A DNA stretch of 60,777 bases, the filler included, from Hausera hauseri (taxonomy: Eukaryota), in NCBI GenBank assembly GCA_046269625.1. It is 11 parts of 11 records of this genome, joined end to end, with 100 filler letters (N's around TTAATTAATTAA, not from the genome) between each part and the next. Parts side by side here need not be neighbours in the genome. Positions count along the whole stretch, not along the records: positions 45,777 to 53,620 come from JBJURY010901202.1; 10 more parts are not named here. One strand, given 5' to 3'. This document shows positions 20,351 through 58,250 of this stretch, piece after piece. A model generated the notes under the pieces. It was given only the letters and a program-made list of their open reading frames with translations. It did not search any database and was not told where the DNA came from. Each line of letters begins with the position of its first letter. The stretch's first letter is position 1. Made by a program: the position numbers and the translations under genes.

Positions 20351-20356
20351 AGCTGG

Positions 20357-23740: not shown

Positions 23741-24446
23741 TTTAGTAACCAGTTGCAACGTTGAAACGGAGCAGCTATTATAAATCCAAAATAAAAAGGG
23801 CTAATGAACAACGCTTTATTATTTATAATTCAAAAAATTATCTATAAATTATTAAAAATCAATTTTGGTACAATATATACAATAATATTACAAGGTTCTT
23901 CTATTTTTCTGAAACACATAGACACACGTTGTGAATAGAATGATGAAAAGTTCATTTGGTTTTGGAACAATTTTTGATGATGCAACAAAAATGATAATCC
24001 TTTATCGCTTGATTTAATTGACGATCCTGAAAGAGTCACTTGTTGGAAAGATTGTTATCTCCGCTTGAAGTTGAATTTTCGCCTCTGAGGAAACAAGTTG
24101 TGCCCGCGACCGCGGCGTCATATGACCCAGTGGCCAGATTAAGACTGTAAAGAGAAGAATAAATGGAGATTGTAGTAGGAAAAAGAACTTGTACTCAATG
24201 GGTTTTGGTCCGTGTTAGTCTTTGGACTCCATCTATGAACGTCTCCCTGCTGTAAGTACTACATGTCACTTGGTGTGACCTGTTAGATGTTACTGGGGCT
24301 TGTGGAGTTTTTTGAGGTAGAGATGCTGTGGATTTTGTGGTGTTCTGGGAGGATGCCTCATGATGATGTGAAAGTAAAGAAGAAGCTGAAAAAAGAAAAG
24401 GATCACGTGAAGTAGACGAAACTGGAGATGGCAGTGAATTAAGAGA

Positions 24447-24888
24447 TAGTAGGGGAAAAATGCGGGTTCTCTCTCACCTGGGGTGGGGGTAATTGATAAA
24501 TCAATTTTGCACATGTGCCAATCGATAGTGCACACAGTACGTGTACTATCGGTCGGTAGTGTGCTAGGCGACGTTGCCGCAAAGCACTGTTGTTATGCGC
24601 ATTTTTGCACATTTCACAAATCAATCGTTGCACAGTGCAGTATTGATCAAATCGATCGGAACAACGTGCTTATCGGTAGTATACATCAGTGCGCATCGAT
24701 TGGTGCATAGTGCAGATGTGCAGCACACGTAAAAATGTGCAAAAATCAATAATATCGGATTTACTATATTCACAATATTGATTATTGGAGCACGGCACCG
24801 CGTGCAATCGGAAGCACACATGATGCACTGTGTGAATGTGCAGTTAGAATTTAAATATATTGATTGGTTTTCGAATAATTGCCAACTG
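24447..24888 (+). repeat. Interspersed non-coding repeat rich in ATCGAT/GTGCAC palindromes
   Basis: Colinear with 59584-60030 (both start agtaggg(g)aaaaaatg and contain tgtgcagttagaatttaa..tattgattggtttt.gaataattgccaactg). Confidence 0.8.
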
Positions 24889-24988: not shown

Positions 24989-26550
24989 TAATTCGGACCA
25001 TTCCCGCAGTTGATTAGCTATTATCGGCTTTGCTAATATAGCCTTGTCTAGCATCTTATATGCATCCTTTAATTCATCATCTGGACCTTTTATGAAATTC
25101 ATAATCCGGCCGACATAACTAAACTCATCCTTATATTCATCAATTTCTTCCATAGAAGCTTTTATTACGTATTTGGTTTCTTCTTTATTTAGAAACATAA
25201 TTCGGTTTCTCAAACTACAAATTTGTGTTCACTTTTTATTTTACATTTTGGTACGGTTTTCTAGGTTCGTATATTGTTTGGGTAGAGCGAAGGAGATTTT
25301 TATCATCTCCATTAAGGGAGAAATATCTACTGGGTCTACACCCAACATCTCTAAATCAATATCACTTCGATGGTTAACCGGTTTTCCTCTAAGCCGATTA
25401 ATCTTTGCACAGCAAATTTCATCCATCTTACGCTCTATCTTACGGACTACTGTCTTAAGTTTTGGGTTTGCTTCTAATGTAGACAGTAGCGTCTGGGCTT
25501 TATCGACTTTTACATCAATACTATCTTCGTTTAGCACCATCCTTCCGAAAATTCGACTTCACTTTTAATCATTGATTCTCTTTCACGCTTCCATTTTAGC
25601 AAAGTTTCATGTGGTACCTCCTCAGGTTTCCTAAGTTGATTGCTTCATATAGCTTCCCTCCACTACATAATTTTAAACTTTTATATAACCTCTCAGCAAA
25701 CTGTTGCTCTTTACCGGATATATCTACTTGTTCACTAATCTGCTTAAGCCTTTCCAAATTTTGTTGTAATATTTCTAGATCGTGGCATCTATTTCTCGTT
25801 TTCTTTAATCCATCGGCATTTTTCCACGAACGTCGGATTTTCTACTTTCTTGGATCAAAATCATCAATATTTCCCGTTTCGTCCTTAGTAGTGGAAAGTG
25901 GGCAAATCTTGTTAATTTCGTTAACTGACTCTGCAGATTCTTTTACCTCGATAGGTGTGAATGGACCTATTTCGGGTGTATTTAATCTAGGCTCTACGTC
26001 GCTCTCTACAGCGATGGTCGTATTTTTTGTTTCTTCTATTTTCTCTCTAGTTTCTTGCAAACATGAACGACTTCTACGTTTCGTTTTCGGTGTAGGGCTG
26101 CGGCCTCTATCTTTCGTAATTTTAAGTATTAATGGTTCCATGAATTCTTTTTCTGCTATATCATCTTCAGTAACCTTGTCTACTTTTTTAACCGTGAACT
26201 CAGGCTCTGCATCTAAGTCGACTTCTGTCGAAGTTCCTGGTTTATCTGCTGTTTTATTACTTGTCCTAACACTCTTCTTTCGTGTCATATCAATTCCTTT
26301 GGGTGCTATCGCGTACTCATATTCAGTTTCTGGTTCTGATAAACCATTATACACTTCTAATAGTCTTAGCTTATCTCCGTATTCTTTTCTAGTCATCAAA
26401 ATTTGTGGATTAATAGATTCAGGTTAAGCATCTAGAAATTTTCGCAAGTCTTGTATGTCGATAATAGTACCTGTATCTCCACGAGCACCATACTTTGCCT
26501 CTAAGTTTTCATTAACTTTAATCATACTAGTCCTATTATGAGCCGTAAAT
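24989..26550 (-). pseudogene. Unknown coiled-coil ORF 'X' directly following the gag zinc knuckle
   Basis: EPETEYEYAIAPK, PLILKITKDRGRS, EINKICPL and NPKLKTV..NRLRGKPV..DLEMLGVDP match 52249-53584; no protease or RT motifs. Confidence 0.7.
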
Positions 26551-26554
26551 GAAA

Positions 26555-27565
26555 CGTTGCGTGGATTTGGACATGTTCATGCTATGTATCCTTCTTTACC
26601 GCAGGTAAAACAAACTAAGTTTCCATTACTACCAATTTTTTGTCGACTGTCTTCATTTACTGGCGATTTAGATCTATTTGAACTCCTATTATTCGGGTTC
26701 GACGAACATTATGTACTATATGCATTTCGTCGACTATCATTATTTTGATTATCATCGTGACGATTTTGATAGTTAGGACTTTTATAGTTTCCTCGATTTC
26801 TATCCGAATTGGAATTCGACTTATTTATATTTCGTTCGCTAGCATAATTATTATTTCGGATACTCGTATTGTCGTTATTACTATTTTTCTTTTCATAATT
26901 TCTATTTTCATTAAATCGTCTATCGTCTCTATCGATATGATCATTCCGATTATTATTCCTATCATTTCTATCATTCTGTCTGGCATATCTATCGAGTGTT
27001 ATCTCTACGTCTCGGGCCAATTGCCGAATTCGCTCAAAATTCTCAGGTCTGGCAAAATACCATTAATTAATTGAGTCGTCATCATGACGTCTAGATCTGG
27101 CGGGGTTACCTTTTCCGCAGCATCACGTTCCGCGCCTGATTTAGCTTTTGCTACATTAGCTATTCTTAAGGTACTTACATAACTATTAGCGAGTTTCTTC
27201 AATGCAAATGCAAACTGGGTTACCGATTCACGCTTCTGTTGCACTCTTTTATGAAATGCCATAAGCTTCTGTTGCGGCGTTACTGTTGGCAATAATTTAC
27301 GGTTTAATGTTCCTAATAGGGAGGACTAAGATTTATTCTCATCATTAGTGAGCTCGCTATAAGTATCAACGGCCAAATTCTTCAAGTACAGCAACAAACG
27401 TTTAATCATCACTTCCGGAGTAAGACTAGCACCTTCTGCTTGCAACTTATAAGTTCTCAAAAATTCATTTAACCCGTCCGAATCACCATCGTTTGAAGGC
27501 AGGTTCAAAGAATCAAAAGTAAAGATGTCCAGTTTCCGCGCTACTGGTGGGTTATCTGCTGCCAT
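26555..27565 (-). pseudogene. gag: Gypsy gag (capsid + CCHC knuckle)
   Basis: NEFLRTYKLQA..RLLLYLKNLAVDTYSEL, FHKRVQQKRESVTQFAFALKKLA (retrotransposon capsid), N/R-rich linker, VCFTCGKEGYIA*TCP at ~26568-26612. Confidence 0.82.
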
Positions 27566-27948
27566 ATTAGTCTCAAAATTTACTTTTTAACTTTAGGTTT
27601 TACAAGAGGAATTTTAAACTTATCGACTCAGTTAACAGCGGTTAAGTCTGTATTAACTAAATTTACTCTAGTTTCAGGAAGTGAAAGTTTATCTAACATT
27701 TTGTTATCTCTATATATATTTCTATGCGTCTGGTGTATAGGCGAGTTTACTTTGTCGTTTAAATCAAGGTTTACTTTTAATCTATCAATATTCGTTCTCA
27801 AAAGAATTTTACTTTAAACCCTATTCAACTTATAACCCGAATTTTAAGACTTTTCAAACTATATTCGATTACCTGATGTGGGCCGCTGATCGCCGATATG
27901 TCGTTAATTAACTCTTAGCTGAAGTAAAGTCTAGCGAGGCACTAATCT

Positions 27949-27966
27949 GTCCTGCTAGGGTTGCCA
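27949..27966 (-). promoter_or_regulatory. Primer-binding site (probably tRNA-Arg)
   Basis: TGGCAACCCTAGCAGGA lies 2 nt after the LTR end; tRNA identity is inferred from resemblance to Arg 3' ends. Confidence 0.6.
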
Positions 27967-27968
27967 AA

Positions 27969-28703
27969 TGTTATATACTCGAGTGGCCGTTATACAACTC
28001 CCATTATATAACAATAATTACACTTGAATTTTAAAAATTCTTAATACAGGTAAGGTCTACGTTATTGAGTAGACAGCTTGTGCCTTATTTCAAATAGTTT
28101 AAATCAGTAGTGCTGGTACTCGCTTGCGGTCCCGGGCAGAAATTTTAACAAAATTCTAGTCTTATGCTATTTTACAGTAGACGTTTTCCACTAAGGTAGT
28201 CTAATTATCCTTATGGGGCAATGGAAACTGTACAAGATTTTTAAAATAACAGTTTATATTTAATACAACAATAATAATTACTAAATCAACACGAAGTTTT
28301 CTCCAATATCGTTCTCAGTCAATTATTCAATTAAGTTCGTTCTAGACTAATATATCAGTTCAATCGTTTCGCTGTTACTGAATTTCTCGTCGATTCACAA
28401 TGTTTCACAATTTCTAGTATCTCTGCTGACATTCAACTTATTTATATATTTCTGGTCTATCACGTGAGTGTGTACGTGACCAGTTAATTGCAATTTAACT
28501 GATTTTCTGTACTTTTCATTCTCTTTTTCTGGTTTTAGAAATGTTTTAATTCGACATAAATTCATTGTCTTCTCCAAAAATTTCAAAATTTATGTCCGAT
28601 TATTGCTGAATTCTTTTTTTATATTTGTACAAATTCCTAAGTTTGTACAATTATTAGAAATAATCATAAAATAATAATTATTCACAATATGTTGTTTATA
28701 ACA
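27969..28703 (-). repeat. 5' LTR (~735 bp)
   Basis: Terminal inverted repeats TGTTATA...TATAACA, followed by a PBS and gag. Confidence 0.75.
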
Positions 28704-28759
28704 GTGTTTACAAATTGGACGTCTTTACATCATTTGGACTTTTCCAACATATATATAGT

Positions 28760-29414
28760 AGGGTAAAAATGTATGTTCTGCGCCAGGGGGTTCCACTTGC
28801 GCAATTCCATAATTGCGCCACTACCCGTGCGATTTGCATAACTTCCGGCGGTTTCCTGCGTAATTTCCGGTAAATTTTGCGCACTTTGGGCATAAATTAC
28901 GCGATTTAGACGCAATTTTCCCAGGAAATTGCGCATCGCGTTACGCGCAATCGATCGCGTCAAAAAATTGTGCAAAAATATCCTGTTATTACGCAATCAC
29001 CGTTAAAGAAAGTGTTTTTTTTTGCGAATTTCGTGAGAACCTAAAAACATTTTACCTTTTTCTCAACGGATTCCAACTTAGCTCAGCAGCGCGGTTCGAA
29101 CGGTATATAACATTGTCTGGTAAGTGGAACAGCGGGCCGAGGAAACCCTAGGTATGTTCTGCGCCAGTCCGGTTTTTTCAATGAAAATCGTCGGAAATTC
29201 AATATATCAGCTCGCAGAATACCTATGGAGTTGATTAAGGTGTCGTTCGATGCGTTTCCATGAGGCGAGTCGAATGAATGTAGTATCGACAGCATTGGAT
29301 CACCGGGACCGAAGGTATGAGTAGAAAACTGAGCAAAAAATTATTTTTAATTGAGCACTGCTCACAATTTAAATAACATCCGGTAAAACGCCTTTAGCTC
29401 GATCCATAATGGCT
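28760..29414. repeat. Non-coding, CG/palindrome-rich repeat-like sequence (possible DNA-transposon remnant)
   Basis: Internal duplication gtatgttctgcgccag (~28771 and ~29152), many short palindromes, no coding motif. Confidence 0.35.
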
Positions 29415-30152: not shown

Positions 30153-30515
30153 CTACCAAATGCATGTTGACCAAAGACAAATAGAATATTTGTCTGTCTG
30201 TTTAATATAAATGTCGTTGTGATACCAACTGATCTCTGGAACTGGATGTCCAACAACAATTGCTTTAAATGTTGCGGTTCCTTTCAATGCAACTGTTGAG
30301 TTTTGTGGCTTTTTAATAAAATTCTGGAGTTCTAAATAAGGACCTGTACTGTCTAAACTTTCTGAATGCACTAATACGCTTACATTTTTGTGCATTAAGC
30401 ACTTCCAAATGGATCTTTCACGATAACACAATATTTGCCTTCATCATCATGGAATACTTCATGAATATAGAGAGTAGCCACATTTTCATCTCGGAATAAC
30501 TTGTAATCCTTTGAC
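30153..30515 (-). pseudogene. Host Ig I-set domain gene fragment (titin/twitchin-like)
   Basis: ATLYIHEVFHDDEGKYCVIVKDPFGSA and FIKKPQNSTVALKGTATFKAIVVGHPVPEISWYHN. Confidence 0.8.
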
Positions 30516-30519
30516 ACTT

Positions 30520-30640
30520 TAAGGCGGAAAATCGGGACCCGCCTATGCGTCCGACGCGTCGGCAGCGCAAAATCCGGCCGTGCACAACCGAATGGGCCGG
30601 AGGGCAAAGATCGACGTGGGTGCCACATCACCCCCCCCCC
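30520..30640 (-). repeat. Polypurine tract (G10, 30631-30640) and start of the 3' LTR (TGATGTGG from 30630)
   Basis: Reverse complement reads GGGGGGGGGG|TGATGTGGCA; the related element's LTR ends in ACATCA (58131-58136). Confidence 0.75.
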
Positions 30641-30703
30641 GTGGCAAAGTTAGAACTATAAAGAATAAAAGAAAGAGAGAAAAAAAGCGCAAAACAAAGT
30701 GTG

Positions 30704-36491: not shown

Positions 36492-37701
36492 AAAGGCTAC
36501 CCAACCAGTATGTAACAGGAATTTAGGTGATCCACGGGTATGATTATGAACGAAACCCGAAACAACGAAAGTATGATTGGGGCCTTACTCATTGGAGGAA
36601 CACGACGGAATGTATAGTAGATGACTGTGGCAATTACCTCATATACTATACTCTGATCAAAAGATTTAAAAATCGCTATCAATGGCAATATACAAAGTGC
36701 CAAGGTATCTTACAGGTTCCTAGTAGACGAACAATGAATGCAACTCTCTTAGATGAAATAATAGTAACTCAACTCACTGTTAAACCGATAGGATTCAAAG
36801 GTGGACGAAGTTGTGTCGAAATTAGGACCATGATAGAGTTGGAATAGGACAAAGTAATAAGTATAAGACTTAAAAAGAAACAAAGGATACCAACAAATTG
36901 CCAGTTAACTGAGAAGCACCTCCGAGTATGTTGTAATGCCCTACGAGGACGAACTATGGTTTACAGTTTATATTAATAAAAAAGGACTCAAAGAGAGTTA
37001 AAACTCTAACTCACAAAGGGCCTAGAACATATGTTCCACTCAAAAGTGTCACTGAATATGACGACAACCAGCAGCCACGTGTCATGACATCTCTTGCGAA
37101 TCTTGCACTATCTAATAAAATAAAGAAAAATGTTGGAAATATGACCGTTCTTATTCGACCTCATGCCGTATCCTATCGCTACAAACGTTCTGTCTTAGAA
37201 AATGCCACTATATCTTCCACGCTCACCTCCTTAGTTGTAGCTACTCAACCTGATTTAAACTTCTATAAAATAAAGCTTATTTGAAAACTAGGTCAATAGA
37301 TTATAGCAAAAGGCATTATTGCGCCAGACGATACAGTAGTGCCGTGTGCTGAGCTAAGTCCAAATACGAAGTATACGGTCACACTACAGTTATATAGTGA
37401 CGATAATAGGATAATCTCTAGTAAATTACTGATAGTTTCGACGAAAGCCAAAACACAACAAAAAGTAAAAAACAAAAAGGGTACAGGCTCCAATACAAAT
37501 CCACCACCATCAAAAGCAAGTTATACCTCTTCCCGAATAGAAATAATCATAATAAATACTGTATGTCCCACGATCTTCTTAAATGCACTAGCTCTTATAA
37601 TAAAAACAATCGTTTGTATACGAAAACGTCGCAGATCAAACTGGGTTAGAATAGACATGCGACGCACACCGAACATCTTGGATACTGGTAATCCAAGTTG
37701 A
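36492..37701 (+). pseudogene. env: Env-like membrane protein, homologue of 18987-20350
   Basis: NTTECIVDD, VKPIGFKGGRSCVEI, furin site RYKR, FN3-like VVPCAELSPNTKYTVTLQL, TM followed by RKRRR. Confidence 0.7.
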
Positions 37702-37877
37702 CAATGGCTTCAGCGGATTGTTGTAGACGCAATCCGAGAAATTAAGATAACTGAATATTATTCAGTTACCGCGAAAAATAATAAGTTTAAAATGACAACG
37801 ATTACCAAACCAATATGATAACCGTTGTATTATATTTAAGATTTTGTGATATGTATATGACGTTGATTTTTATAGTA

Positions 37878-38910
37878 ATGGATATTCAAGCCGTGCAGCA
37901 CAGCAAGAATTGGTACGAGAACGCCAAAAACCACCTGTCGAATGCAACCTCTTCCAATCAATACCACATCCGAGTCAACGAAAATACTTAGTCTCAACTA
38001 TCCAATGGTTCAGCAAATACCCAAAATATCAAGGGGCATTCAATGGGGAATCGATCATTGGCATTAGTCCACATCACAAAGGCCATCTAATTTCCTCTAC
38101 CAGATTTGATCAGCTTCCCGAATAAATTCCACAGTTAATATTTATGATATCATCGGTATGTTCCAGATAAAAATGAAGGACATCAAAACAAATCATCAAA
38201 GGGAACTAACCAATTTGGACCCAAACCACGGAGTGACACTCCAATTCGATTTAATCAAAAGAAATACTCTCCAGATTCTCACATTAACCAATCGAATCAT
38301 GCTTGGAATCGAGTTGATAAAGGCAGAATCCATTTGGACAACACCCCCACAAGGAAAGTGTTTCAACCTAACGAAACGTGACTATCTAAAGTATACTGAC
38401 AAATCATACCGACGAGTGCCACAAATTTTTAACGAAGATATTGTAGTGGTTGCAGTTAACTTGGCATACAATCAGAATAACCAGCTGACGCCGTTAGAAT
38501 GCTCGGTAATAAACCTTCAAGGAGATACTCTGTTCTATACGATGATAACCCCAAGACAAAGAATCAATAACTTTGACTCCCATATTACAGGACTCACCGA
38601 AAACAACATCAACAATCAAATGGACGCTAATTTATCCTATCAGATTTCAGCCGTTTCAAATGATAAGATGGTCGTTGGAGCCGGCGTACTGGAGATGTTA
38701 CAAAAACATCTCTGTGCGTTACGACGAATTATTGGAGTTCGTGATGTGCTCTATCATGAAGAAATAATTCGGACGTATAAACTGGAAACGAGGACTTACA
38801 AGGAGTTGGCTAAGAAATTCTATGAAATGAAAGGTATGTCACTCCGCAGTATGGCACTGGTGCAATGTTACCATGCTTATATAATACTTTGCGATGGGAC
38901 GATGAGATAA
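37878..38910 (+). pseudogene. Accessory ORF with DEDDh (REX4/ISG20-like) exonuclease fold, catalytic D/E absent
   Basis: DIVVVAVNLAY...ECSVINLQGDTLFYTMITPRQRINNFDSHITGLTENNI...KMVVGAG...VRDV parallels REX4 ALDCEMV..RVSIVN..G..VYD.YVKP...V.DYRT.VSGI...ILVGH...IRDT. Confidence 0.65.
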
Positions 38911-42146: not shown

Positions 42147-42810
42147 TTCAGATGAAACTGCAGAATGATGAAATTTCCAGATTGTAGGCTCCAGTGAAAG
42201 TGGCAAAACGCAATTTGCGTGTAAACTATTGCAGAACTACAGTGACATGATTCATTCACAGCGTTACAATCACATATACTGGCATCAGGTGTAGGTGATG
42301 ATGGTGAGTCTGGTCGGACACATCGGGAATTTTGTAAACTGAAATCAATAACGGTAGTTGATGGGTTTGATGAGAACTGGTCAGAGCGATTACGCAACGG
42401 TGGCGTTATTGTCATTCATGATTTATTTCAGGAAGCCGCGAAACAATCGGATTTCAATAACCTGTTCACGAAGATTGCACGACACCGTAGTGTGACGGTT
42501 ATTTTCATTAGGCAAAACATGTTCCATCATGGTGTACAGCACCGAACAAGAAATCTAAACGTACATTATTTGGCGTTGTTCAAAAATCCCCGTGATTAGA
42601 CTATCATTGATTATGTTGCACGACAAGCATTTCCTCACAATCGAGCCTTCTTGACAGATGCATATCATGACGCTATGTACAAACTGCATGGATATCTGTT
42701 TACTGACTTTACACAACGGTGTCCCGATGATATGCCTGCAAGAACAGATATTTTCAATCAGAAAGGTGTACATATCTATAAACAATTTCGAAAATCGACG
42801 AGATGATTGT
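42147..42810 (+). pseudogene. A32/FtsK-like viral DNA-packaging ATPase
   Basis: FQIVGSSESGKT (Walker A), GGVIVIHDL (Walker B), LFTKIARHRSVTVIFIRQNMF, NVHYLALFKNPRD. Confidence 0.85.
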
Positions 42811-43010
42811 GATAAGATGAAGAATTTCCTAAAAGAAATTGTTGAATGTAAACCTACCAAGCGGGTGGCCGGCATGATACGTGTATCAAAATTAACTGCT
42901 ACAGTCAAGCGATCAGTCAATTCTGTGCTTCGAACAATATCAGCAGCAGCAACCAGACGCATATTACCGTGACAGTGGCATTGATTATAAACAACTACGT
43001 ATCAGCATCA

Positions 43011-43358
43011 ATGCGTCCAAAAATGCAATTCAAACGTAGTCAGCCGTACGTTATTGCTTTGCTCAAGGCACTGACGAAACATAAGGAAAACATGCTACGA
43101 TCATTCTCGCAATTTGTAGTAGACGATTTGATGGAAATTTTGTACAATATCGTTGTGGATCACGTTGACATTGGTAGTGGAAAGCGGAATTTACTAAAGT
43201 GTCGAAAACTACTCATTAGCCTTGCCAACGCTTGTAATAAACGACTGAAACGGGAGATCAAGTATCTGCACGATGGAGGATTCCTTTCAGCAATTCTACC
43301 GGTTTTCACGTCATTACTGGGTGGACTCATTGGAAGAACAGATGAGTATAAACAATGA
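43011..43358 (+). CDS. Small Polinton/adintovirus core-type protein with C-terminal GGFL amphipathic segment
   Basis: EILYNIV..G..I...LLK...HDGGFLSAILPVFTSLLGGLIG; located between the ATPase and integrase. Confidence 0.55.
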   Translation: MRPKMQFKRSQPYVIALLKALTKHKENMLRSFSQFVVDDLMEILYNIVVDHVDIGSGKRNLLKCRKLLISLANACNKRLKREIKYLHDGGFLSAILPVFTSLLGGLIGRTDEYKQ

Positions 43359-43504
43359 AGGTAGGTATATGGTGATTTGCAATATGCGTGCATGGTCTTC
43401 ATCGTTTTATCCCAGTTTACCGAATCTTTCATTAACAATTCCGTTTAATTATGGCAATGCTAACAAGAATGACATCATCTACAACCCCAACGACAATGAT
43501 CGGT

Positions 43505-44530
43505 GACGTGTGATTCGATCCGCGTCATTCAGTCGAGTACAATGGCGTCGACAAACTAGCAAAGTCTGTCAAATCGACTCGGCGACAAATCCAACGTTAG
43601 CTGGGGAAACAGTTAGCATGCAGCATAAACAAACCAATAAGAAGGCGTTTTCCAACTCATGCATTCCGTGTTGCCGGTGTATGTAACGTGTGGCAAGAAG
43701 ACCTTATAGAAATGATTCCATATGCCACCATTAGCGATGGGTATCGGAATGTGCTGATATGTATTTATGTGTTTAGGCGTTTTGCACGTGCAACTGTTGT
43801 CAAATCCAAATCCGATAAAGAGATTTCCAAAGCTGTTTACAGATTAATTAAACAACAACCACCGAAACATGTACAAACGTATTTGGGTAAGGAATTTTAC
43901 AACTCTCAGATTGCATTAGTTTTGAGGTGGTTCGGTGTAAACCAATACTCAGTGTTTTCACAATACAAGGCTGCACTTTATTGAACGATTTAATTTAACC
44001 TTGCTTGGCCGACTGAACAAATTCTTTACGAAGAATGGCAATAAACGCTGGGTAGATACATTACAGTATATTATGCATGCATATAATCATTCGACACATC
44101 GTGGCATTCATGGATTACGGCCAATGAATGTAATCAATGATTTGGACATGTGGCTTTATCAAAACCGAACACAACGACGACGACGTCAACAACCACTTAA
44201 ACGTCCCAAGTATAAAATCGGTGATTATGTACGTATTTCAAAGCTGAGTAGGACACCATTCAATAAGAATTTCAATCAGAACTGGAGCGATGAGGTTTTC
44301 CGAATTTCAGCAATCAACACTAAACAAACACCTGTTATGTACGTTTTAGAATATGAAAATTGTGACGAAATACGTGGAAAATTGTACAAACAGGAATTGG
44401 AAGTACTACTATAAAAACCTGATGTGTATCATATTTAGGAAATTCTACCTTCATGCGGCAAATGTTTTAATAAACAATACCTCGTTAAGCGGCATGGATA
44501 CATCAAACCCAGCTGGACATTTGCATCGCA
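43505..44530 (+). pseudogene. Polinton retroviral-like integrase with chromodomain-like C-terminus
   Basis: WQEDLIEM, VQTYLGKEFYN, KAAL.ERFN, YNHSTHRGI, KYKIGDYVRISK..FNKNFNQNWSDEVFRI, GKLYKQEL, QYLVKRHGY. Confidence 0.88.
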
Positions 44531-45776: not shown

Positions 45777-48700
45777 AAAAATAATCTAATTTTTTTGCTC
45801 GTAAAAATTTTTCGTCTTTTTGTTCTGATTTGTATTCTGGAGTTTTCTCCTTTAGCGGTGAAAGTTTTAACGCGATTTTCCTGATTCCATATATATTGCT
45901 CAATGAATTTTCATCGATGCACCATTGGGCGTTAGACGTAGGCGTTAGGACAGCAATCAACGATAAGGCTACTATTATCTGTGCATAAGATACTGGTCTA
46001 GCGGCAATCGACGAGGTCTTGTTTTGTCGCGGTCTTAGATTATAGTGTTTAGCTGGTCTTATATCTGCTTTAACTACTGTTTGGGTTGACACGACTTCCT
46101 CTTTACCGTTTTTGTTAACATAGACCGTGGTCGGTGTTGTGCGGACGATTTCGTATGGTCCTCTTTCGGTACGGGTTAATTTCAAGGATGTACCTTTCTT
46201 CGCGACCGGGTAATGTATATAGATACAATTTCCCTTTTCCAGATCATGGGGCTTGGTCTTTTTGTCATATTGTTTTTTAAATTGTTCCTGGTATTCAAGT
46301 GATAATGTTTTGCAACTTCCCAACACTTTTGCAATCTTGTTTGTAAGACTTTGGCGAAGTTTTGTGCTAGATCCTTGAGGTTTTTTCCGTATGTTGACAT
46401 ATCTAGATCTGTGGGTAAGATTGCTTCTCGTCCGAACATCATAAAGAACGGAGTGAATCCTATTGCTGGATGCGGGGTGGTATTGATTTCGAACTGGGTT
46501 CCTTCTAGGAATTCGTCCCAATCCTTTTGGTCTTTGGCCACTACTGTTGGTAGTATACGAATGACTGTTGCGTCCATTCGATCGACCATTCCATTATATC
46601 AGGGGTGGTACGCGGTAGTGGTTAATCGTTCGATTTCGAATATCTTAGTAATTTTTTCGAATAATTCACTTGTGAAGTTCCTTCCTCTATCCGTTACGAT
46701 TTGTTCTGGTGGTCCGTATCTGCAGATAATTTTCCTTACCACCGCGTCGGCTAAAGTTTCTGCCTTTTGATCTAATAGTGCCACCAGCTCGACGAAATGT
46801 GTTAATCGATCCACGCAGGTCAGAATATATCTGTTATTTTTGTGAGTTTTAGGCAAAGGTCCCACTATATCCATAAACATAGCTTGCATGGGCCTATCTG
46901 GTACGTTTATGAGTTTTAATTCTGCCACGTACCCTTTCGTTTTCCTTTGCTTTGTCTAACAAACTTCGCAAGCACCTACCCAATTCTTTACATCAGTATG
47001 AATGCTTGGCCAATAGTATTTATTTAATATCCTTTCAAAGGTCTTCTTCCAAGACATGTTTCCACCTAAATATGAATTATGTTCGGCTATAAGTATTTCG
47101 ACACGTAATCCTTTTGGAATAACTATTAGTCTTCTCCCTTTTCGTTCGTAATATAGAATATTATCTTTGTTCGATGCGCGATATTTATGTCCGTGTTTCT
47201 GTAGATGCTTCTTTAATTATCGTCCTTTGGGCATTTTGCCGTTTTGTTCGAACTCAACAATTTGCTGAATAACCTTATCTTTAGCTTTTTCTACGGTGAT
47301 TCCGATCGTTTTATCCAGGGTTAGGGTTCTTTGACGTTCAATTATTCGTTCGAGCTGCGTTTCCTTAACTGTGGTAATCCCACTGGTTTTTGTCTTTAAC
47401 CTTGATAGTGCGTCGGCGTCGACATGTTTAGTACCTGGTTTGTATTGGAATTCAATGTTATATAGTGAGATTTCATCGATCCAACGGTTTAATCTACATG
47501 TTGGATTATTAGCTTGTCCCTTCAATGTCGTGACTGCTTTGTGGTCGGTCACTATTATAATCTTTTGTCCATAGACATAGACATTAAAGTATCGTAGTGC
47601 TTCCTTTACGACTAACGTTTCTAATTCAGTAACCGAATAATTCTTTTCAGCTTTTTTAACGAGCGTCCTCCATAGGCTATTAGATGGTCTAGTTCTTCAT
47701 CTTCTCGTTTCTGAGCTAATTCGTATCCTATACCTTCTTTACTTGCATATGTTTTAATGACGAATGGTAGGTTAAAATCAGGGTATGTTAAAACTGGTTT
47801 GCTTGCCAAATCCTCTTCATTTCGTCGAATGCTTTTTGTTCCAATTCCGTCCATCTTCACATAGTTACCTTTTTGAGTAGGCGATATAGTGGTGCGTTAA
47901 TTTTCGAATTATCTGGTACGAAAGGGGCATAATATCCACATATACCTAACCAATGTCTTAACTCTTTTTGATTCTGCGGTTCCATACAATCGGATATTTT
48001 ATTTAGCGGGGAATTATCCGGTTTTGACCCTCCTTCTCCAACTATGTGTCCGAGGTACGATACTGCCTTCTGTGCCCATTTACATTTCTTTGGATTTAGT
48101 TTCAACCCTGCTTGTTCTAGTCGCATGAGTGTATCCTCAATGTCCTTTAAGTGTTCTTCTTCTGTTTTTGATGCTATCATTATATCGTCCAAAATCGCGA
48201 AAGCATAATCAAGTCCTATGAGCATTTTATTCATCGTTCTAGTAAAAATGGCTGGTCCTGTAATGATGCCGAAAGGCATAACATTAAATTCGTATACGCC
48301 ATCGTGTGTTTCAAACGCTGTCTTATATCGATCTTCTTCTTCGATTTCCACTTGCCAGTATTCTGATTGTAAGTCGAGAGTGGTAAACCATTTCACTCCT
48401 GATAATCTGTCTAAAGCTTCATTTACTGACGGTAGGGGAAACGAGTCTTTCACCATCAGCGTGTTTAATACACGATAATCTATACAAAATCGATGTTTTG
48501 TAGTTCCTTTCTTTTTAACCATAAGCATAGGTGAGTATCATGATCGGCAGAATGATCAAATTATATCGGCATTTAACATTCGTTCTACCTCTTTAGTTAT
48601 TTCTGGTCTTAGTGAATGGGGAGATGGGTATCATTTGGACATTTTTTGTTCTTTTAGATCGATTTCATCATTCGAACCGGGTTTCTTCCTTAATGAGATT

Positions 48701-49280
48701 GTTAATCTCAGGGCTTTTGCTCTGCCTATGTCTTCCTCATTTCGTGCGATTATTGAACGATATTTACATAGTAATTCGTAGAACTTGCAATACGCCTCAG
48801 GAGAGAATTTGGTTTCAACGTGAGGTGGAAATTCAGCGAACTTATATGGCTTTTCCTCTATTATTACTGCCGATACTCTGCAAATGTGACCTAAAGTAGT
48901 GTTAGCATGCAGTCTTACGGAAATTCGTACATTGTTTATCAATCTGATAGGTATTCGTCCCGTCACTACTCTACATAAAATATTACTAAACATGAGGTTT
49001 GGATCGATATTTTCTTGAGGTTCAAAATATACCGACAGATCTTCGTCTTGACGAATCTGTGCAAAAATTATCATTTCGGTCCTGGGAGGAATGTCTTCAT
49101 CTTCTGGAATCCATACTTCGCCCGATTTTCTTTCCTTTATTACTTTTGTCCCTTTTATTGGTTCGAGCTTAATTAATTTCCCATTATGCACATCGATTGC
49201 CATGCCTGGTATCTGTTTCAATATGTCACAACCTAGTACTACATCGTCCGTTAACTGATCCATTATCGCAAATTCGTTGG
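45777..49280 (-). pseudogene. pol: Gypsy pol (C-terminal half of PR, dUTPase-like spacer, RT, RNase H, integrase) running into a signal-peptide-led env-like start
   Basis: VVLGCDIL; RFCIDYR, VMPFG, AILDDIMI; TYASKEGIG, TDHKAV; MDIVGPLP, TDRGRNF, TTAYHP; GPY; HYNLRPR then IIVALSLIAVLTPTSNAQW. Confidence 0.9.
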
Positions 49281-49289
49281 TGTGGAATG

Positions 49290-50103
49290 TTCTACATCTT
49301 CCTTTGATTTAGTATTTGTGTGTAATTTATTTGTATAACGTTTTCCGGCTGTCTTATTAAACTTTAACTTTTTGATTTTGATGAAATTACAATCTCTCTA
49401 AGAAGGTGGGCTCCATACCACAACTGAACTTCGAAACGTGCAAGCACCATCATGAATGTGACACTTGATTTTCATTGAATAGTTTGGTAACACTATGAAA
49501 CATCGCTTTTAGGGATCTTAACGCGGTTTCGTAAAAATCTACGACTACTATTCCTCCTTCTTTTCTTTTCCCGGTGTCGTATTCTGCTCCAACACTATAA
49601 CCGGTGTGCATGTTCAATTTTCCAACTGCCACTTTGTAGGCTCTGATTATCTTTCCTTATTGAGCTTCCAACTCCATACCATCCCAAACCATTTTTCCGG
49701 TTATGCGGGCTCCTAAACAATGTCGTCTGTCCACGTTCATTGGAATTAATGGGATAATTGGTTTGATTGTTGACGAATGCCCGTGCATATTACCACAATG
49801 GAAAATGCTGCGAGATCTCTGTATCATGCATTCAGTCGCATCCATCGCAATTAATTCACGTTGCTGATATAATATATACATTTTTTCTGTTGTCTCGAGC
49901 TTATGAGGTCTCGCATCTTCGCATGTTTCTAAGTCCATCAGGGAGTATTTCTGACCCACCTTAAATTTGTCGCAATCATATATAGTGACTGCTCCTACCT
50001 GCTTTACTAGCATCATTATCGTCAGCAAGTTAATCAACCAATTGGATTCGTTTCCTTTGTTCGGAGAGATATTTCGTATCATGTCCTCTAACTTATTAGT
50101 CAC
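49290..50103 (-). pseudogene. env: Chuvirus-like (class III) envelope glycoprotein, N-terminal part
   Basis: Signal WLINLLTIMMLVKQVGA then IYDC..YSLMDLETC...YQQ...ECMIQRSRSIFHCGNMHGHSS...HC....TG, the Cys/HCGxH pattern of Chuviridae G and related retroelement envs. Confidence 0.7.
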
Positions 50104-50249
50104 TTTTGTATTATCCTCTTTTTCAAATAATTTAATCCATCTTATTTCTTTAGGTACCCTTCTTGCAGCTTTTCTGGCTAACCCAATTGCCTCCTATCAA
50201 TCACGGTTTCGTCAGGGAGGGTACTTTTAGATCATTTAAATCGTGAGGT

Positions 50250-53200
50250 CTACATTGTCCGGGCTATATTATATATCAGTCTTTCCTTTTCGGATAATCT
50301 GTCTCCTTGGAGTCTGGTATAATTCACTATCCTTATTAGATCTTTCATTAGTTCAATCAGTTCTTCGTTATCGGAACTCGGGGTTGGTACTGATAGTTGT
50401 CTCAATTCTCTAATCAGATCCGCGTTATAGTCGATTTCTTTTATTTTTCTTGGTCTTCCGACCGGCCGTTTCGCTTTCATCGGTGGTGCGGTTTCGCTCA
50501 GCGGAACTAAATTCTTATCGTATTGCGGGTTATCCTCATCAGTCTGTAAGTATTCGAAGTACATTGCAGCATCCTGAATCACCATGATTCTTCCAACGCA
50601 ATGCTCTGTATGCGCATTTCTCATGGCTTCGTCTTTGGTTTGCTCACTGGCGATTATTGCTATTATTCGATTTTCCTCGAAGGGTATAATCCCTACGTCT
50701 ATTAAGGATTCTAGCTCATCTAGTATCCTACCTCTGAAATATAGCCGATAACTAATTCCTTTCCTATCATCCTTATCCATTATCCGCCGTTTTATATCCG
50801 CAACAGTGGTATAGGTAGTTCACTCAAATTCCTCGTCATCCATCCGTTCGGATGATGTCTTCACTTTAAGTTCCGTTTCTGGTTTATTTCTTAGCAATTT
50901 AGCGTATTCTTTTATTAGAAGTTTGGGTACAGCGCTGTATGCAGTGTTTTCACTGGATAGCTTAGTCAAAGTTGGAATTAATTTCCTTAACCTAACTTCA
51001 CTTATATTTATTTTCAACACATTGCTCCGTTCCTTTTCGGCTATTGTGGGGTCAAGTAGAATTTGCACGTCGAATTTCGTCTTCTGGGTACCAATAGGTG
51101 ACTCCAAGATTTGTATTGGAGTTCTTTGGCTTTATTCGTTTAGACCTTGGAGATATTCATCCCACTCGGTTTCATCATCTGCGTCAGGTAACTCGTAGGT
51201 TATTAGTACCGTATGTCCGACCTGGACTCGAGTAATTCTCTTATCTGCGGTTGCAATGTTTTCATTATGGATACCCTAAATCCGTATCCATTTCCGCACG
51301 CTTGCTGTATCAGTGTTATTAATCGGCACATTTCTTCTGGTTGTGTCAGGGCTTTCTCCCGATAATTAGTCATTTCTGCGATTCTGTCTCTTTGCCATCT
51401 CTGTATAAATTCCGTTTTATCGTTCATTTCAGATTCCGTAAGGGAATACTTGTTCTTGTAAACTTCTGTTTCTCTCAGTAATTCGTTTAGCTCGCATTGT
51501 CTTTTCTCGGAGCGTAACCGGGTTTCTTTTACCAGACGTATTCGATTTGTTAGTCGTTTGACTACTATTTCGTCAATTTCTGCCATTTCTGTTAATAGTA
51601 GGATTAATTTATGCATTTGATTTAATGCTTCAGCGTCCGGATCTATTGCGTCCATTAACCTGCCTATAAACTTGGCTTCATCATCCGTTAACTGAAGATC
51701 CTTCCGAATTTCCGTTAGTTCGGTTTGGCAATGTAGGTCGAAACCTGGCGTCCATTCTGCTGGATTCTGTAGATATTGTAGTGTTTGCAGCAGAACAATT
51801 CGGTGATCGTTACATACTTCTAATGTTTCTATTTCGTGGGCTGAGATTTCCTTCAACGGTTTCTGCATTAGGTTCTGTATCCCTTCCAAACGGATGTTCA
51901 CTAAACTCCGCTGGAGGTCAGTGTTATTTGATCTTGATTTTTGATCATAAATTCAAGTTCTCGGAATGATTCGAATTTACTTCGCAATTTCGCTTCGTCT
52001 TTTATCGTACAGATATCTATTAACATTTCTTCCAATTGGTGTTTCATTATCGACTCAGCCACGGCGAAATCTCTCAATCTTTCATTTATTATCTCTGCTA
52101 TGGAAGGTAGCAAATCTATCCACTTCTTTAGTTGTTTAGATATTGCCGGTTTAGTGTAGATTATTTCGTCTAATGTCTCAAAAGCTTCTTTTAGTTCGTG
52201 AACCGGTCCTCGTACAAATTCTATGATCTGTTTCATGTAGTTGAATTCTTATTTATATTCATCTAACTCAAGAAGGCAAGTGCGCATTATTCTCTGTGCT
52301 TCTACCTTTTCAGAGTGGACTACACCAATCCTTAATTCGTTGATTTTGGTTCGTATTTTATTTTCTATTTTAATGCGTATTTCCAAATCTAGATATTGTC
52401 GAGGGCTACCCTTTATCAGGCTGCATATTGCTACTAAAGAGGGGATACCAATTGGATCTATACCCAATATTTCTAGGTCAGCGTTAATCAATTCATATAC
52501 TGGCTTGTTATGAAGATGAGAAATTATTGCTTCTTCGATCTCGTATAGCAATCCCTCTAAATTACGTTTTACGCGTTTTAGTTTTGGGTTGTTCTTAAGT
52601 GTGCATAACAGTCCTTGCGCTTGATTGACCTGCTGAAGAAACGGTTCATTTTTATTCCACCATTTTTCGTAAAATCGATCCCACTCTTTATCCACAGTTC
52701 TATTTTATTTTGCCCATTTTCTATCAAGTTCTGCGGCATTTCTTGCAGTTCATACGGTTTCTGAGAATCGGGTTTAAGCTTTATATATAGCTTTTCTATA
52801 AATTGTTGTTCTTTTCCAGAAATATCCAACTGTTTGCCTATTTGCTGGAGTTTTTGCAAGCTCTCTTGGAGCGTTTCTGGGTCATTCAGTGCGTCTGTTA
52901 TTTTAGCTAGTTTCTTTGCATTTTTCCAAGATTTTCTAATTTTCTCGAACTTTACAGATTTTCCTCTTCTGATTCCTCTTCGCTAACTGGTAACGGACAT
53001 ATTTTATTAATTTCATCAATATTCGAAATATTTGTTGTTTTCGAAGCGTCTTGAGTTATTACGGGAGTATTTAACTCTGTTTCATCTCTTAAAGTGATAG
53101 TGAAGCCTTCCTCCTTTTCTACACTCTTTCTAATATGGGATCGTGAACGAGTTCCCGACCTTCTCCTAAGAGAAAGGCTTCTACCTCTATTTTTGGTTAT

Positions 53201-53620
53201 CTTAAGTATTAATGGCCCAATAAATTCACTCTCAGCTTCGTCTGTTGTTTTATCATTATTTTGAGGTGTGTCCTTGGTATCTGCATCCATGTCTACACTC
53301 GAAGACGTCGTCGGCCTTTCTTCTTTCTTCTCTTTCGCTGCTTGATTTAGATTTTTCTTTCTGGCTATGTTAGTACTTTTAGGTGCTATTGCCCTTTCGT
53401 ATTCCGTTTTTGGTTCTCTCAACCTATGGTAAACTTCCATTTGGTGCAGCTTTTCTTCGTATTCCTTCCTAGCCTTAATTACTTGTGGGTTATTAGATTC
53501 GACCATATTTTTCACGTATTTTCGTAAATCCTGCATCTCGATAATCATACTTATATCACCTCGTTTTCCGTAGATTCCTTCCAAATTATATTTTATCGTG
53601 CTAGCTTTACTAATCTCTGA
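50250..53620 (-). pseudogene. Unknown ~1100-aa helical/coiled-coil ORF 'X' with an AT-hook near the C-terminus
   Basis: Seven consecutive ORF pieces; the N-terminal ~500 aa are homologous to 24989-26550, which follows gag; KRPVGRPRK AT-hook at ~50445-50475. Confidence 0.65.
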
Positions 53621-53720: not shown

Positions 53721-56700
53721 GATTCCTTAGCCAAACAAACCTGGCAGAATATAAATTGTCGGGTAAAAACATTTTATCGTTGTGTAATATACTACAGAAC
53801 AAGTCTTTACTGACTGTGACGAAATGTCTCTGTGCTGCTCAGATTGTTTCATCTGTAGGCGTATCCTCTAGGGCTGTTAGCTCAAACAAAGTACGTACAG
53901 GCGCTACAAATAAGGCTTCGGTAGGTAAGCATCCTGTAGAAATGGATGAAGTTTTCCTCCAGCTAAGCAGGACCAACGAGGAAGAGCTGTTCAACTACTG
54001 TTGGATTCATCGAGAATTTTTAGCCACGTTTTCAGTGTGCTGTGGAATCTCTCAATAAAATCATTTTATTGGGGATGATAAGGCATTGTGTATAGATGGT
54101 TCATCCCCAATCGGTTAACGAGTGATTTGAACAGGTTGTATTCGAATATGGGACCTTGGTCCAAAATGATAAATCTAGGAGATCCAAACCTGCTGATTCA
54201 AGTGCGGATAAAAACTTCAGCTATCGTATCCGTGTTTGTGCTTCGTGGCGGGACGGCTTCTGGCCATCTAGAGGAACGGTCCATCATGGTCAAAATGAAT
54301 TGATGGCCATTGTCTGGAGGAAGAGGACCGACAAAATATATATGAACGGACTCGAAACGCAATGTGCAAGGGAAACGATATAATTGTGACTTCAAATGCT
54401 TGGTGGTTTTAAATTTATGGCAAGCCACGCACTCCTTAACCCACGCTTGCATATCGGAACGCATTGACCGCCAAACTACCTGTCGGTGAAGTAAGTGAAA
54501 AGTGGCCTTAGCACCAGGATGGTGTAGAGAATGCACACTGTTGAAAGCCTGTTTTTGCAAAGCAGGTGCTAAGATTATTTTAGACTCTCCTGGTTTAAAC
54601 GTGTCTAAGGCCATGTCATCAACGATGTTCCACGATTTAAAAGATTTAAGAATGTCTTGAGGTGGCTGGTTTTCCAAAAGTTGATTTTGAGTGAAAATGT
54701 GTTTAAAATTAATTGAGCCAATTGACCTAGACAAAAAATCTGCGACCAAGTTGTTAATGCCATTCATATGCTTAATTTCGAAATTAAACATCGACGAGTA
54801 CGATATCTGTCATCTTTGCCGAGAAGATCGTTGCTTCATCGCCATGATATTTATGAGGGGTATATGATCGGTTTATATTGTAAAACGGCAATCAGTGAGT
54901 AAATGCGAAAAGTGTTTTAAAGCGAGAAATATTGCCAGTAGTTCTCGGTCAAAAGTGGATTATCTGGTTTCAGGATGTGTTCATTGGCGTGAAAAGAACT
55001 CCAGCGTTGATTTTCGCCTTTATGAATCTGGTGCAGTACAGAGCCTACAGTGGTAGTAGAGTCGTCTGTGGTAAGAATAAGCTCAGCGTCTGGCTTAGGA
55101 TGTGATAATATTTCGACTGTTTTAGGCCATCCCGTAACTTATTAAACTTATCTAGCAGTTCCGGCTTCCACAGTATTGGCTGATGCTATTTTCTGCCACT
55201 TAGGTGAGCAAAGGGTGCGGTTAGCTCTGAGCAATATGGGACATACTTGTGGAAGAAATGTACTGTGCCGAGGAAGCTCCTCATTTCCGTGGTTGTTCAC
55301 GGTAATTGAACGTTTTTGAGGACCTCGACTCGGTTAGGCTGAGGAGAATGCACTTCAGAAGAGATAACGTGTCCGAGGAAATTTATGCGTCGTTGGAAGA
55401 AGTGACATTTTGTAAAGTTTATTTGGAGGTTGTGTTGGTGTAAACGGTGAAAGATAAATCGTAGATGTCCCTCATGCTGTTTACTGGATGAAGAAGCAAC
55501 TAGAATGTCATCAGTGTAAGGATGAGCATAAGGAAGAACTGAAAGTATTGCATCTATGTGACGTTGGAAGGTTTGTGTGTCATTCCTTAGACCAAAGGGC
55601 ATATATAAATATTCGTAAAGACCAAAGGGTGTAGTAACCGCGCTTTTTCGATATCTGCGGGTGCCACCGGGATTTGGTGATGAGCCTTGGTCAGGTAAAT
55701 AGTAGCATATATTTCGGTGGCGTTGAAACGATGTAATATGTCTTTTATCAATGGTAACGGGTACTCGTCCATTATGGTCAAAGAGTTTAGTTGCCGATAG
55801 TCACCGCATGGTCGAAACGATCCGTCCTTTTTTTGAACAACATGTAAAGGCGAAGACCATGGCGACTTGAATCAGCGTACTACGCCGGAGCGTTCAAGAT
55901 CTAGGAATTCGGTTTCAACGGCCCGTCTGCATCGCGGAGAAAATGGACGTAGCTTTTTGGCGAATAGGTCTTTGGTGTTGTGTTACGATGTGGTGAAAAG
56001 TTTTGTTTGTTGGTATAAAAGACCTATCTTTTTGAATTACGCGAGTACATGATATATTAATGTACTGTTGCAGACTTTTAGGGAAATTGTGAAAGATCGG
56101 TGAAGGCGAGATAGTTTTATCATTAACAGTTCCTCATTTGGTGGCTTAAGATCGAGAGCTATTTGATGCAGTATGGTCGTGTTTAATATTGTATTTGAGG
56201 AAGTAATTTTATCGAGTGTTTTTACGGTGGCGACAAAATCATAGTTGTCAACGTCCAATTTCGATTCCGTGTGAATATTATATTTTAAAAATTTATGAAA
56301 TAAGTTATGATTATTTGAAAAGATCTGTTTATTCGAAGACTTTTTTAATGTTGGCTTCCGTGTAATCTTTATTTGCGCGACAGCTGAAATGCCATTTGTC
56401 TGGCCAATTTGATTCTTTTGGCCATTTTTTAAACAACGTTGTTTACAGTCCACCAGAAATTTATAATGAAATAGAAAATCAGACCCTAGAATGGCTGTCT
56501 GCACAATTGCAACGATAGATGTCCAATGAAACTTTGATGTAAAGTTTGGCAAAGTGAAAGAGAGTCTAGAGGTGCCGGAAACGTGTAGCGACTGTCCGGA
56601 AGCTGTAAAAGAGATTTTGTTTTAGATGGTACGTTTTGAACTGAAAAGGTGAGCGGTAATAGCGATATCGTTGCACCTGTGTCGATAAGAAAGTTTATGT

Positions 56701-58250
56701 ATTGAGATGGTTGTATTATGGTAGAAGCTTTCAACGTGAATACAGCGAAAGAAATTTTTCGCCTATCAAAATGCAAAGAATGGCCGTCGCCAGTGCTTGC
56801 CGTAAACTCTGGCGGTGGAGTTAGTTTTTTGAAAGAGGGGAACTTGAACGGCTGTTAGAAATGTAGCTAACATGTCCGTCGTTTGAATACAGTGTGTTGC
56901 TGTTAAAAGGACAACCTGAGATGCATTTGTGCGCATTATGCCTAAATTTTGCATGGTATATGCAAACAATGTTGTTAGTATGGTACTTCTGGGTGTAAAA
57001 TTTGCACTCAAGATGGCAGAAACAAAACCCCCTATCAAGTGAATGAATTCTCGTTCAGTTTATTGTTGATATTACTTAGTGTTGTTTGCATGGCCGCATT
57101 TTTGGCTCATAGTTGATTTAACTGCTGTTCGAATGTATTGTTGTTGGTAGTAACGGCTACGGAAATGACTGATTGAGTGTGCACATGCAAGACCTCGTAT
57201 ATTTTGTCTGACAATTCAGCCAATTTATCAAGCGTCGTCGGTTCTTCGACGGCGGTAAGTAATGCCCTACTTTGTATTGGCAGTGCGTTCAAGAAGTAGC
57301 GTGGCAAAAGATCGGCATTGTTTTTTAGTTACGCCAAGTGTTTGAAGTTGAGCGAGCGACGTTCTAAGGACATCTGACGGTTTTTGCGTTCCCATAGCAT
57401 TGTCGTTGAAGAACCAATGAATTATGGAGTACACAGATGGTTCGGTAAGCTTTAAAACGGCATTGTAAAGATGTCTGTATGGATCAGGTTGCTGGAAGAT
57501 GTCTAGCAAGTCATGAATGGACGTTTTTACTGTAGTCGGTAAAAGACAAAGTAGGTTATGAGCTTTGGTTAGCGAATCAGTAATACTGTTAGACTGCAGC
57601 CAAGGTTTGTGAAGGCTAAGCCAGGTTTTGGTGGGCTTCTCATGATCGATAAAATATTCTGTGCACTGAAAAGAAGTGTGTTTGGATGACTGGATGGAAG
57701 GTGTATCAGCGGTGAAAGTAGATGGCGTGGTTACAGTCGTTTATTTTTGGTGAACAGTGAAAGGTGATGGTTTAGAGGTAGTTTTGTCAGTAGTGTCAAT
57801 GGTGAACGAAGAATCCATGCCACGACAGATACGAATGTGTACTTGAATAATGATATTTTGGGTTGAAGGAACGAAAAGGTTGTGAAAATTTATAGTAATT
57901 ACAGGAAGGTTGTTGTACGTAAGGTAAAAGTTAGAAATATTAGCATAGTGTAGTACATAACTGTACAAGGAATGCGCGTCGATAAAATACGTTGTATTGA
58001 GTGTGAGTAATTGGCGATTATTTAGGAAGAATAAAAGGGAAGAATTGGTGTTGGCCCTAGTGATGACGCAACGGACCGGACCGTAGCTCCCACTGACATT
58101 GGACAACCGGTTGGGCAGTCGGTCACGCTGTGATGTACTTTCCTCTCACGGAAAACAACACGAAGAAGAAAACAAGAATGACGCTTTATTACCTTATAGC
58201 AAAGCAGAAACCCTAAGCAGAGCGAAATAAACCGGCAAAAAAGAAACATT
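53721..58250 (-). mobile_element. Second CsRn1-like Gypsy copy: LTR end, decayed PBS, Ubl-gag-pol
   Basis: Colinear with 31380-35680: FLIDTGA, MPFGLRN..YTDDIL, HSLHHPG..CVAC, HIYFVGPLP. The LTR contains AATAAA and ends ACATCA at 58131, followed by CAGCGTGACCGAC (possible decayed tRNA-Trp PBS). Confidence 0.88.
57819..58050 (-). pseudogene. Ubiquitin-like domain in frame with gag
   Basis: LLFFLNNRQLLTL...ISNFYLTYNN...IIIQVHIRICRG|MDS; codons TGT CGT GGC are two substitutions from CGT GGT GGC (RGG). Confidence 0.65.

Follow-up and report, generated by a model that had tools for sequence, protein, structure and literature searches.

A decayed Ty3/gypsy element of Hausera hauseri with a chuvirus-like glycoprotein remnant ahead of pol, probably from a high-copy gag-X-env-pol family

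Does the retroelement that carries a chuvirus-like glycoprotein (G, env) in Hausera hauseri (GenBank assembly GCA_046269625.1) lack a pol gene, or does its env lie upstream of pol? The question is raised by contig 45777-53620 (c10; minus strand), one of 11 short, repeat-rich contigs which, joined end to end with spacers, make up the 60,777-nt stretch of DNA analysed here (the window, to which all coordinates refer) and most of which carry decayed mobile elements. On this contig a long charged open reading frame (ORF), here called X, precedes G, and a paralogous element lies on contig 24989-29414 (minus strand). An earlier note on this DNA had offered two readings: a pol-less structural module (gag-X-env) dependent on a separate pol-bearing partner, or an element with env upstream of pol. 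In what is probably the correct reading, the contig holds a dead Ty3/gypsy copy in which X, an env remnant and pol follow one another on one strand; it is likely to derive from a high-copy gag-X-env-pol family, and the direct contact between the first 40% of env and the second half of the protease is probably the outcome of a deletion of about 1.5 kb or more.

The absence of pol, on which the modular proposal depended, did not hold, as pol begins at the very base where G breaks off. It starts at 49278, on the same strand as G, and extends to 46018. Its first part is the C-terminal half of an aspartic protease (PR; 49174..49278), which matches a profile of 49 fetched proteases at positions 74-107 of 117 only and does not include the catalytic D[ST]G motif. 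There follow a spacer domain (48850..49120) that gave no Pfam match, is 29% identical to the same region of the relative P0126 (described below), and is presumably a dUTPase-like slot, a label that follows a published review (PMC6431247); a reverse transcriptase (RT; 47860..48594; RVT_1, E 1.4e-35); an RNase H (RH; 47380..47836; RT_RNaseH and RT_RNaseH_2); and an integrase (IN; 46018..47150) with an H2C2 zinc finger, core, GPY motif and C-terminal part recognized by Pfam and motifs. The order is therefore PR-RT-RH-IN, with PR as a C-terminal half. The best relatives of the RT are about 50% identical and are named as gypsy-type pol (412, 17.6, 297, Ty3 pol). Judged from the set of Pfam domains and the names of these relatives, pol is of the Ty3/gypsy type, and the Bel/Pao setting in which the element had been discussed does not apply. 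Behind the integrase, in frame with its C-terminus, a second signal-peptide-like stretch (hydropathy peak 2.18) opens a further protein that is cut by the contig end (45778..45995); by eye, the element at 15285-20356 and the sequences P0016 and L001 are arranged alike behind their integrase. A motif count of hydrophobic tails after integrase (n = 14 proteins) missed P0016 and was not used.

Upstream of pol, the remnant of G (49278..49989) is the N-terminal part of a glycoprotein of the chuvirus/herpes glycoprotein B (gB) type. It matches the Pfam family Monjiviricetes_fusion (PF24664) over profile positions 6-190 of 653 (E 8.5e-16), and the motifs by which it had originally been recognized are indeed present, with YDC...SL.D...C at 49980-49921 and FHCG at 49803. 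It has been cut to about 254 of about 650 codons, so that the remaining ectodomain and the membrane anchor are absent. Against the glycoprotein of P0126 it is identical at 63 of 205 residues, a score reached by none of 300 shuffles (29%, E 2e-16 in a separate comparison), and its tail, which lies in a second frame, aligns to the full-length relative with a score that none of 500 shuffles reached. Ahead of G stands an internal signal-peptide-like stretch (49990..50040; hydropathy peak 1.71 over 15 residues) that aligns with the signal region of P0126. A search of the PDB with G gave no significant match, none of three candidate stretches in viral contigs was confirmed as carrying G, and a word-based search among proteins of 434-2,000 aa scored none of 533 candidates, which is weak evidence.

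ORF X (50232..53620) comprises about 1,120 codons, and its 5' end is lost at the contig end. Read from 53620 down to about 50250, it consists of five frame pieces with 1,108 codons counted, five stops and four frame changes. It had been described as charged, helical and provided with an AT-hook. The charge is confirmed, D, E, K and R making up 31-36% of each piece, and so is the motif KRPVGRPRK (50445..50471), which we take to be AT-hook-like; for the helical character, in contrast, no confident model was obtained, and a PDB search with the helical X profile returned no significant match. X also holds a probable ubiquitin-like domain (50652..50873): the match to PF00240 (E 0.0019; 18.4 bits) lies under the curated cut-off of 25.4, and the top PDB sequence matches of this stretch are ubiquitin chains. 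Two single-sequence folds of it (predicted local distance difference test, pLDDT, 53.8 and 51.7) are too poor to confirm the domain, and the second showed no ubiquitin fold. Apart from this sub-threshold match, Pfam gave only weak unrelated matches on the X pieces, and the best scores of two pieces in the ESM Atlas (0.76 and 0.82) were uninformative. A degenerate PR or RT inside X would have refuted the original proposal, but this objection does not apply: PR, RT, RH and IN profiles built from the fetched relatives, which score real pol up to 293 bits, found no remnant of these domains in any of the six frames of X.

The paralogous contig 24989-29414 supplies the part of the element that is missing from contig 45777-53620, which stops short of both long terminal repeats (LTRs). 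It carries, in this order, an LTR, a primer-binding-site-like sequence, gag with its zinc knuckle, and X in frame. The 5' LTR (27969..29112) has TG...CA termini. Its right end, already placed at 27969, is firm; the left end is more likely to be 29112 than 28703, as had been supposed, judging from the 10-bp terminal inverted repeat that 29112 would give (matched in 0.4% of 2,000 shuffles) and the 7-bp repeat given by 28703 (matched in 21.5%). The segment 28750-29112 (minus), inside this longer LTR candidate, is GC-richer with repeated TGCGCA-like words, possibly U3 regulatory repeats. The primer-binding-site-like sequence (27949..27966) begins with TGG two bases past the LTR, and no exact tRNA entry was found for it. 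Gag (26570..27565; 331 codons) aligns by tblastn with the Gag part of the relative P0139 (E 1.9e-5), gave no Pfam gag match, and has a single CCHC knuckle at its end (26612). The first 509 codons of X (24989..26516) show codon-position bias; knuckle and X start (about 26516) share one frame, with four stops in 488 codons, so that the claim that X begins right after the Gag knuckle is borne out. The X start is conserved in both families.

X, G and pol bear the marks of past selection as proteins. Across 443 aligned codons the two copies of X share 42-58% identity, a likeness well beyond that of 200 shuffles each. Of these codons, 39% differ in the first position, 30% in the second and 60% in the third; as this excess at third positions shows, X was formerly under purifying selection. 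Among copies of the family, 22 of the 30 variable places listed on the G side are third positions in the G frame, as far as 49302; on the protease side, 10 of the 10 listed are third positions. The survey of copies was made in a single sequencing run (X1), in which 0.36 of sampled words are present; no RNA run was listed as containing them. Since its contigs cover all 30 bins of contig 45777-53620 (23,091 contigs aligned, mostly 80-95% alike), X, G and pol are all repeats.

Intact relatives show how such parts are arranged. A search with the stretch from G to RT among proteins of 1,437-4,575 aa, a design that favours RT-bearing proteins, gave 47 matches, two of which, P0126 and P0139, contain PF24664. 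P0126, the best match and the owner of the closest G found, is an uninterrupted ORF of 3,036 aa with PF24664 at 407-1044 followed by PR, RT, RH and IN, and P0139 has the Gag knuckle, G, PR, RT, RH and IN within one ORF. Both resemble the present element in having a signal, a PF24664 env, an anchor, PR, RT, RH and IN in one frame, and pol compares with that of P0126 at 33-46%. P0139 differs in having no long X. In P0126 the N-terminal part matches X marginally, and a sequence RPPGRPP stands at a distance before the signal peptide comparable to that of the AT-hook-like motif of X (in a marginal alignment). P0126 differs further by its three protease-like domains, one of them behind the integrase, and by C2H2-like fingers between the first two. 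Contig order and relatives agree in supporting env upstream of pol, the second of the two readings originally offered.

Trees of pol were built from 563 columns (RT, RH, IN) and 54 rows, namely two window elements and 52 sequences kept from 89 collinear pols after removal of near-copies. FastTree grouped the pol of contig 45777-53620 with both env-upstream polyproteins (5 of the 54 rows; Shimodaira-Hasegawa-like support, SH, 0.94), and this placement had the best likelihood of seven tested. The other window element (15285-20356, plus strand) falls in a firm clade with P0126, P0139 and P0016 (99.1/100). It is a decayed gypsy pol with a PSAP-containing stretch before PR; its integrase is followed by a signal peptide, in frame, and by what is probably a membrane protein. 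The stretch before PR was considered as an env tail and set aside, as 35 of 500 shuffles reached its score.

The copy itself is badly damaged. With 13 stops and eight frame changes within X, G and pol, and with env and PR truncated, it would be discarded by the intact-ORF filter used by the authors of the errantivirus survey discussed below. To judge from its sequence it is dead, as neither a fusogen nor an active protease could be made from it. The lesions amount to 0.81 per 100 codons in X, 1.19 in G and 0.78 in pol, a similar density that fits one insertion. Compared with P0126 and P0139, it would have lost about 430 env codons and about 70 protease codons, or at least about 1.5 kb.

The join between G and protease (49275..49280), a likely deletion breakpoint, is marked by loose ends of contigs and by a drop in depth. 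Protease-side X1 contigs run into unlike sequence, 6 at 49275 and 13 at 49277 (among the rows listed, 6 of 57), and the summed depth is 26 at 49280-49289, compared with 56,000-63,000 on the protease side and about 6,000 on the G side. Taken together with the lack of a bridging piece among those listed, these loose ends and this drop imply that the join is not the norm of the family. Either this copy has lost sequence there or two elements meet; since the join, at about 49277, is rare among the many X1 copies, a copy-specific deletion is likely.

Several observations weigh against a single gag-X-env-pol element interrupted by a deletion. IQ-TREE sets the pol of contig 45777-53620 outside the env-upstream clade, although without support (59.5/31); the approximately unbiased (AU) test rejects just one of seven placements, a plant-element control; and the tree from RT alone does not resolve it. 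The run from X into the glycoprotein had been thought to suffer only point lesions, and the signal-like stretch and G are indeed there, but X and G stand in different frames, with one frame change between them, and their in-frame fusion is not seen in this copy, where the reading frame from G into PR is broken as well. The resemblance of X to the N-terminal part of P0126 is marginal in one piece (a score reached by 9 of 500 shuffles), and in three others no score above chance was found. Gag-X is seen in one family and X-G-pol in another (about 44% identical in X), and all parts are found together in no single copy. Finally, 31 letters on both sides of the junction are found together in none of the eight pieces listed (of 550), the table of joints there is empty, and the protease side has about ten times the summed depth of the G side, a measure that is not a copy number.

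In an alternative account, two elements meet at about 49277, through recombination between neighbours, nested insertion with loss or an assembly chimera. An X-G element would then abut a pol that is not its own but comes from a different gypsy family, although env before pol would probably hold for the X-G family too. Such a junction has a minor but real chance of being the right explanation. The missing bridge and joint, the depth step and the unsettled placement of pol speak for it, as do the fact that the depth at 49280-49289 comes entirely from three G-side contigs with a 3-base indel relative to this copy, and the composition of the window, made of short repeat-rich contigs. However, strand and order are those expected from P0126 and P0139, lesion density is alike on both sides, and one listed X1 contig joins X (52215) to pol (47228), albeit weakly (depth 3.9). 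In addition, since run X1 has only 0.36 of the sampled words, it may come from another individual lacking this copy. A deletion within one element remains our preferred account: a simple internal loss would leave pol behind G on one strand, as observed; in the closest intact relatives (P0126 and P0139) a single ORF has env ahead of pol; and the order GAG-ENV-POL with the same env type has been published for Nematoda, Bryozoa and Platyhelminthes (PMC13524379), as has, for planarian Burro, an env that comes after accessory domains and shares one frame with the gag before it and the pol behind it (PMC6431247).

In a bipartite system, a pol-less gag-X-env LTR family and a separate pol-bearing LTR family, mutually dependent and with shared LTR ends, would divide the work, one partner providing the capsid, the 1,100-aa chromatin- and ubiquitin-directed accessory protein and the fusogen, the other the enzymes, and the present contig would be a rare recombinant. 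The continuation from G into PR that would be typical of the family is not seen directly, most bins show greater depth for pol than for X and G, and the rotifer TelKA2n is reported as an env-bearing non-autonomous family without most of pol (PMC5408684). Nevertheless, both of the PF24664 proteins among the 47 matches, from a search favouring RT-bearing proteins by design, have pol in the same ORF; the window has no second copy of the LTR, and no partner sharing its ends was encountered. The pol-less bipartite module is therefore unlikely, although, with the junction so rare, a slight doubt persists, and we would give both this partnership and the division of duties that goes with it very little weight; it is, however, the only reading that, if true, would be a major result. 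Hardly credible is the ordinary order gag-pol-X-env, in which the contig would be a tandem or nested pair and the copy on 24989-29414 would have lost pol between gag and X. The signal-like stretch and new ORF in frame after the integrase are what a 3' env would give, but this ORF, tried as an X homologue, was rejected, its best score with the X N-terminal profile being below 0 bits; moreover, gag and X share a frame, the conserved X start argues the same way, and env precedes pol in P0126 and P0139.

How an intact gag-X-env-pol element might work can be inferred from the build of P0126 and P0139 and from what is generally known of signal peptides and class III fusogens. A transcript from the 5' LTR would be read as one polyprotein, Gag-X-[signal]-Env-[anchor]-PR-RT-RH-IN-[signal]-membrane protein. 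Guided by the internal signal, which host signal peptidase would cleave, Env would enter the endoplasmic reticulum, and through the Env anchor the chain would come back to the cytosol, where PR, RT and IN would be made and then released by the protease of the element. Env may be a class III fusogen serving cell-to-cell spread. X, attached to Gag or to the membrane, might have an accessory function without catalysis, its AT-hook binding AT-rich DNA and its ubiquitin-like domain binding host proteins; X is likely to be an adaptor of this kind.

The nearest published systems are the errantiviruses described by Chary and Hayashi (eLife 2026), among which those of Nematoda, Bryozoa and Platyhelminthes are reported to have only env of the herpes simplex virus (HSV)/gB type and the order GAG-ENV-POL; the authors also find the chuvirus-like glycoprotein known from mosquito Bel/Pao elements next to gypsy pol (PMC13524379). 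The present element shares with them the gypsy pol, the chuvirus/gB-like env and its position before pol, and the spacing of cysteines and motifs in G resembles, by eye, that of the six Schmidtea rows. It differs by X and by the protein behind the integrase, as the parts consulted describe neither a long ORF of accessory kind separating gag from env nor a membrane protein following the integrase (PMC13524379). Smed_5 and Smed_6, however, span 16,937 and 17,964 bases, as against 14,544-14,922 for Smed_1-4, and this extra length may hide an X-like region.

The planarian Burro (GYPSM1) is similar in another way. Its ORF1 is described as having a CCHC Gag, a long stretch of accessory domains, Smc-like and Ubi/SUMO-like ones among them, an env akin to fusion proteins of negative-strand RNA viruses, and then PR, a dUTPase-like domain, RT, RH and IN (PMC6431247). 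That ORF1, however, measures 4,873-5,140 aa and carries AIR1, MATH, BCL2, BIR and ankyrin motifs, while X has about 1,120 aa and an AT-hook (PMC6431247). None of these five motifs was matched by Pfam in the X pieces at E up to 0.1 and, because these hallmarks were not found, the element is not classed as Burro. Anakin, a mosquito Pao element with a chuvirus glycoprotein (Dezordi et al., 2020), has the same glycoprotein family in an LTR retrotransposon but a Bel/Pao and not a gypsy pol, and the env of Bel/Pao elements (Roo, Tas, Cer7) lies downstream of pol (PMC7642597). From its domains and their order, the element would be a decayed member of the GAG-ENV-POL HSV/gB errantivirus kind, neither Burro nor Anakin, and its layout is already published; X is the sole uncharacterized part. 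Judged from search results alone, the literature gave no X-like protein with an AT-hook and a ubiquitin-like domain, although Sacco et al. (2022), Grohme et al. (2018) and the eLife ORF files may describe such regions.

Other contigs of the window gave the following observations. An ORF at 36494-37698 (plus), homologous to the post-integrase ORF of 15285-20356 (35-48%), ends in a membrane anchor; the next ORF on 36492-38907 (plus) is exonuclease-like by eye, with no Pfam support, and weakly matches a 709-aa ORF behind pol in L001 (2-5437; E 0.002). The stretch 9811-13453 (minus) has a stop-free frame of 833 codons mixing leucine-rich repeat, Na/H exchanger and sterol-sensing fragments, followed by a 390-codon frame with a weak SUMO/ubiquitin-like match, and looks like a patchwork of host gene pieces. 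Two related decayed copies (1-4326 and 20457-24888; 73-82% DNA identity) of a type B2 DNA polymerase gene (E 7e-4) are presumably Polinton-like. Short ORFs at 42246-44411 (plus) weakly match an integrase (E 0.028), include a stretch that looks ATPase-like, and are possibly a Polinton or adintovirus remnant. At 30156-30649 (minus), immunoglobulin I-set pieces, whose match suggests an animal host, adjoin the end of a gypsy copy that is 69% identical to one on 53721-57668, and broken ORFs at 7580-9291 (minus) include a membrane-anchor-like stretch and gave no Pfam match.

As the layout is published, the value of the finding is modest. What the gag-X-env-pol family would represent is a high-copy, mid-sized kind of element, between the ordinary GAG-ENV-POL errantiviruses and the giant Burro elements, which adds a second membrane protein behind the integrase and a conserved accessory region where an AT-hook and, probably, a ubiquitin-like domain are present. 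Should the greater length of some published flatworm and bryozoan elements be due to X-like regions, X would be an undescribed accessory gene of these retrovirus-like elements.

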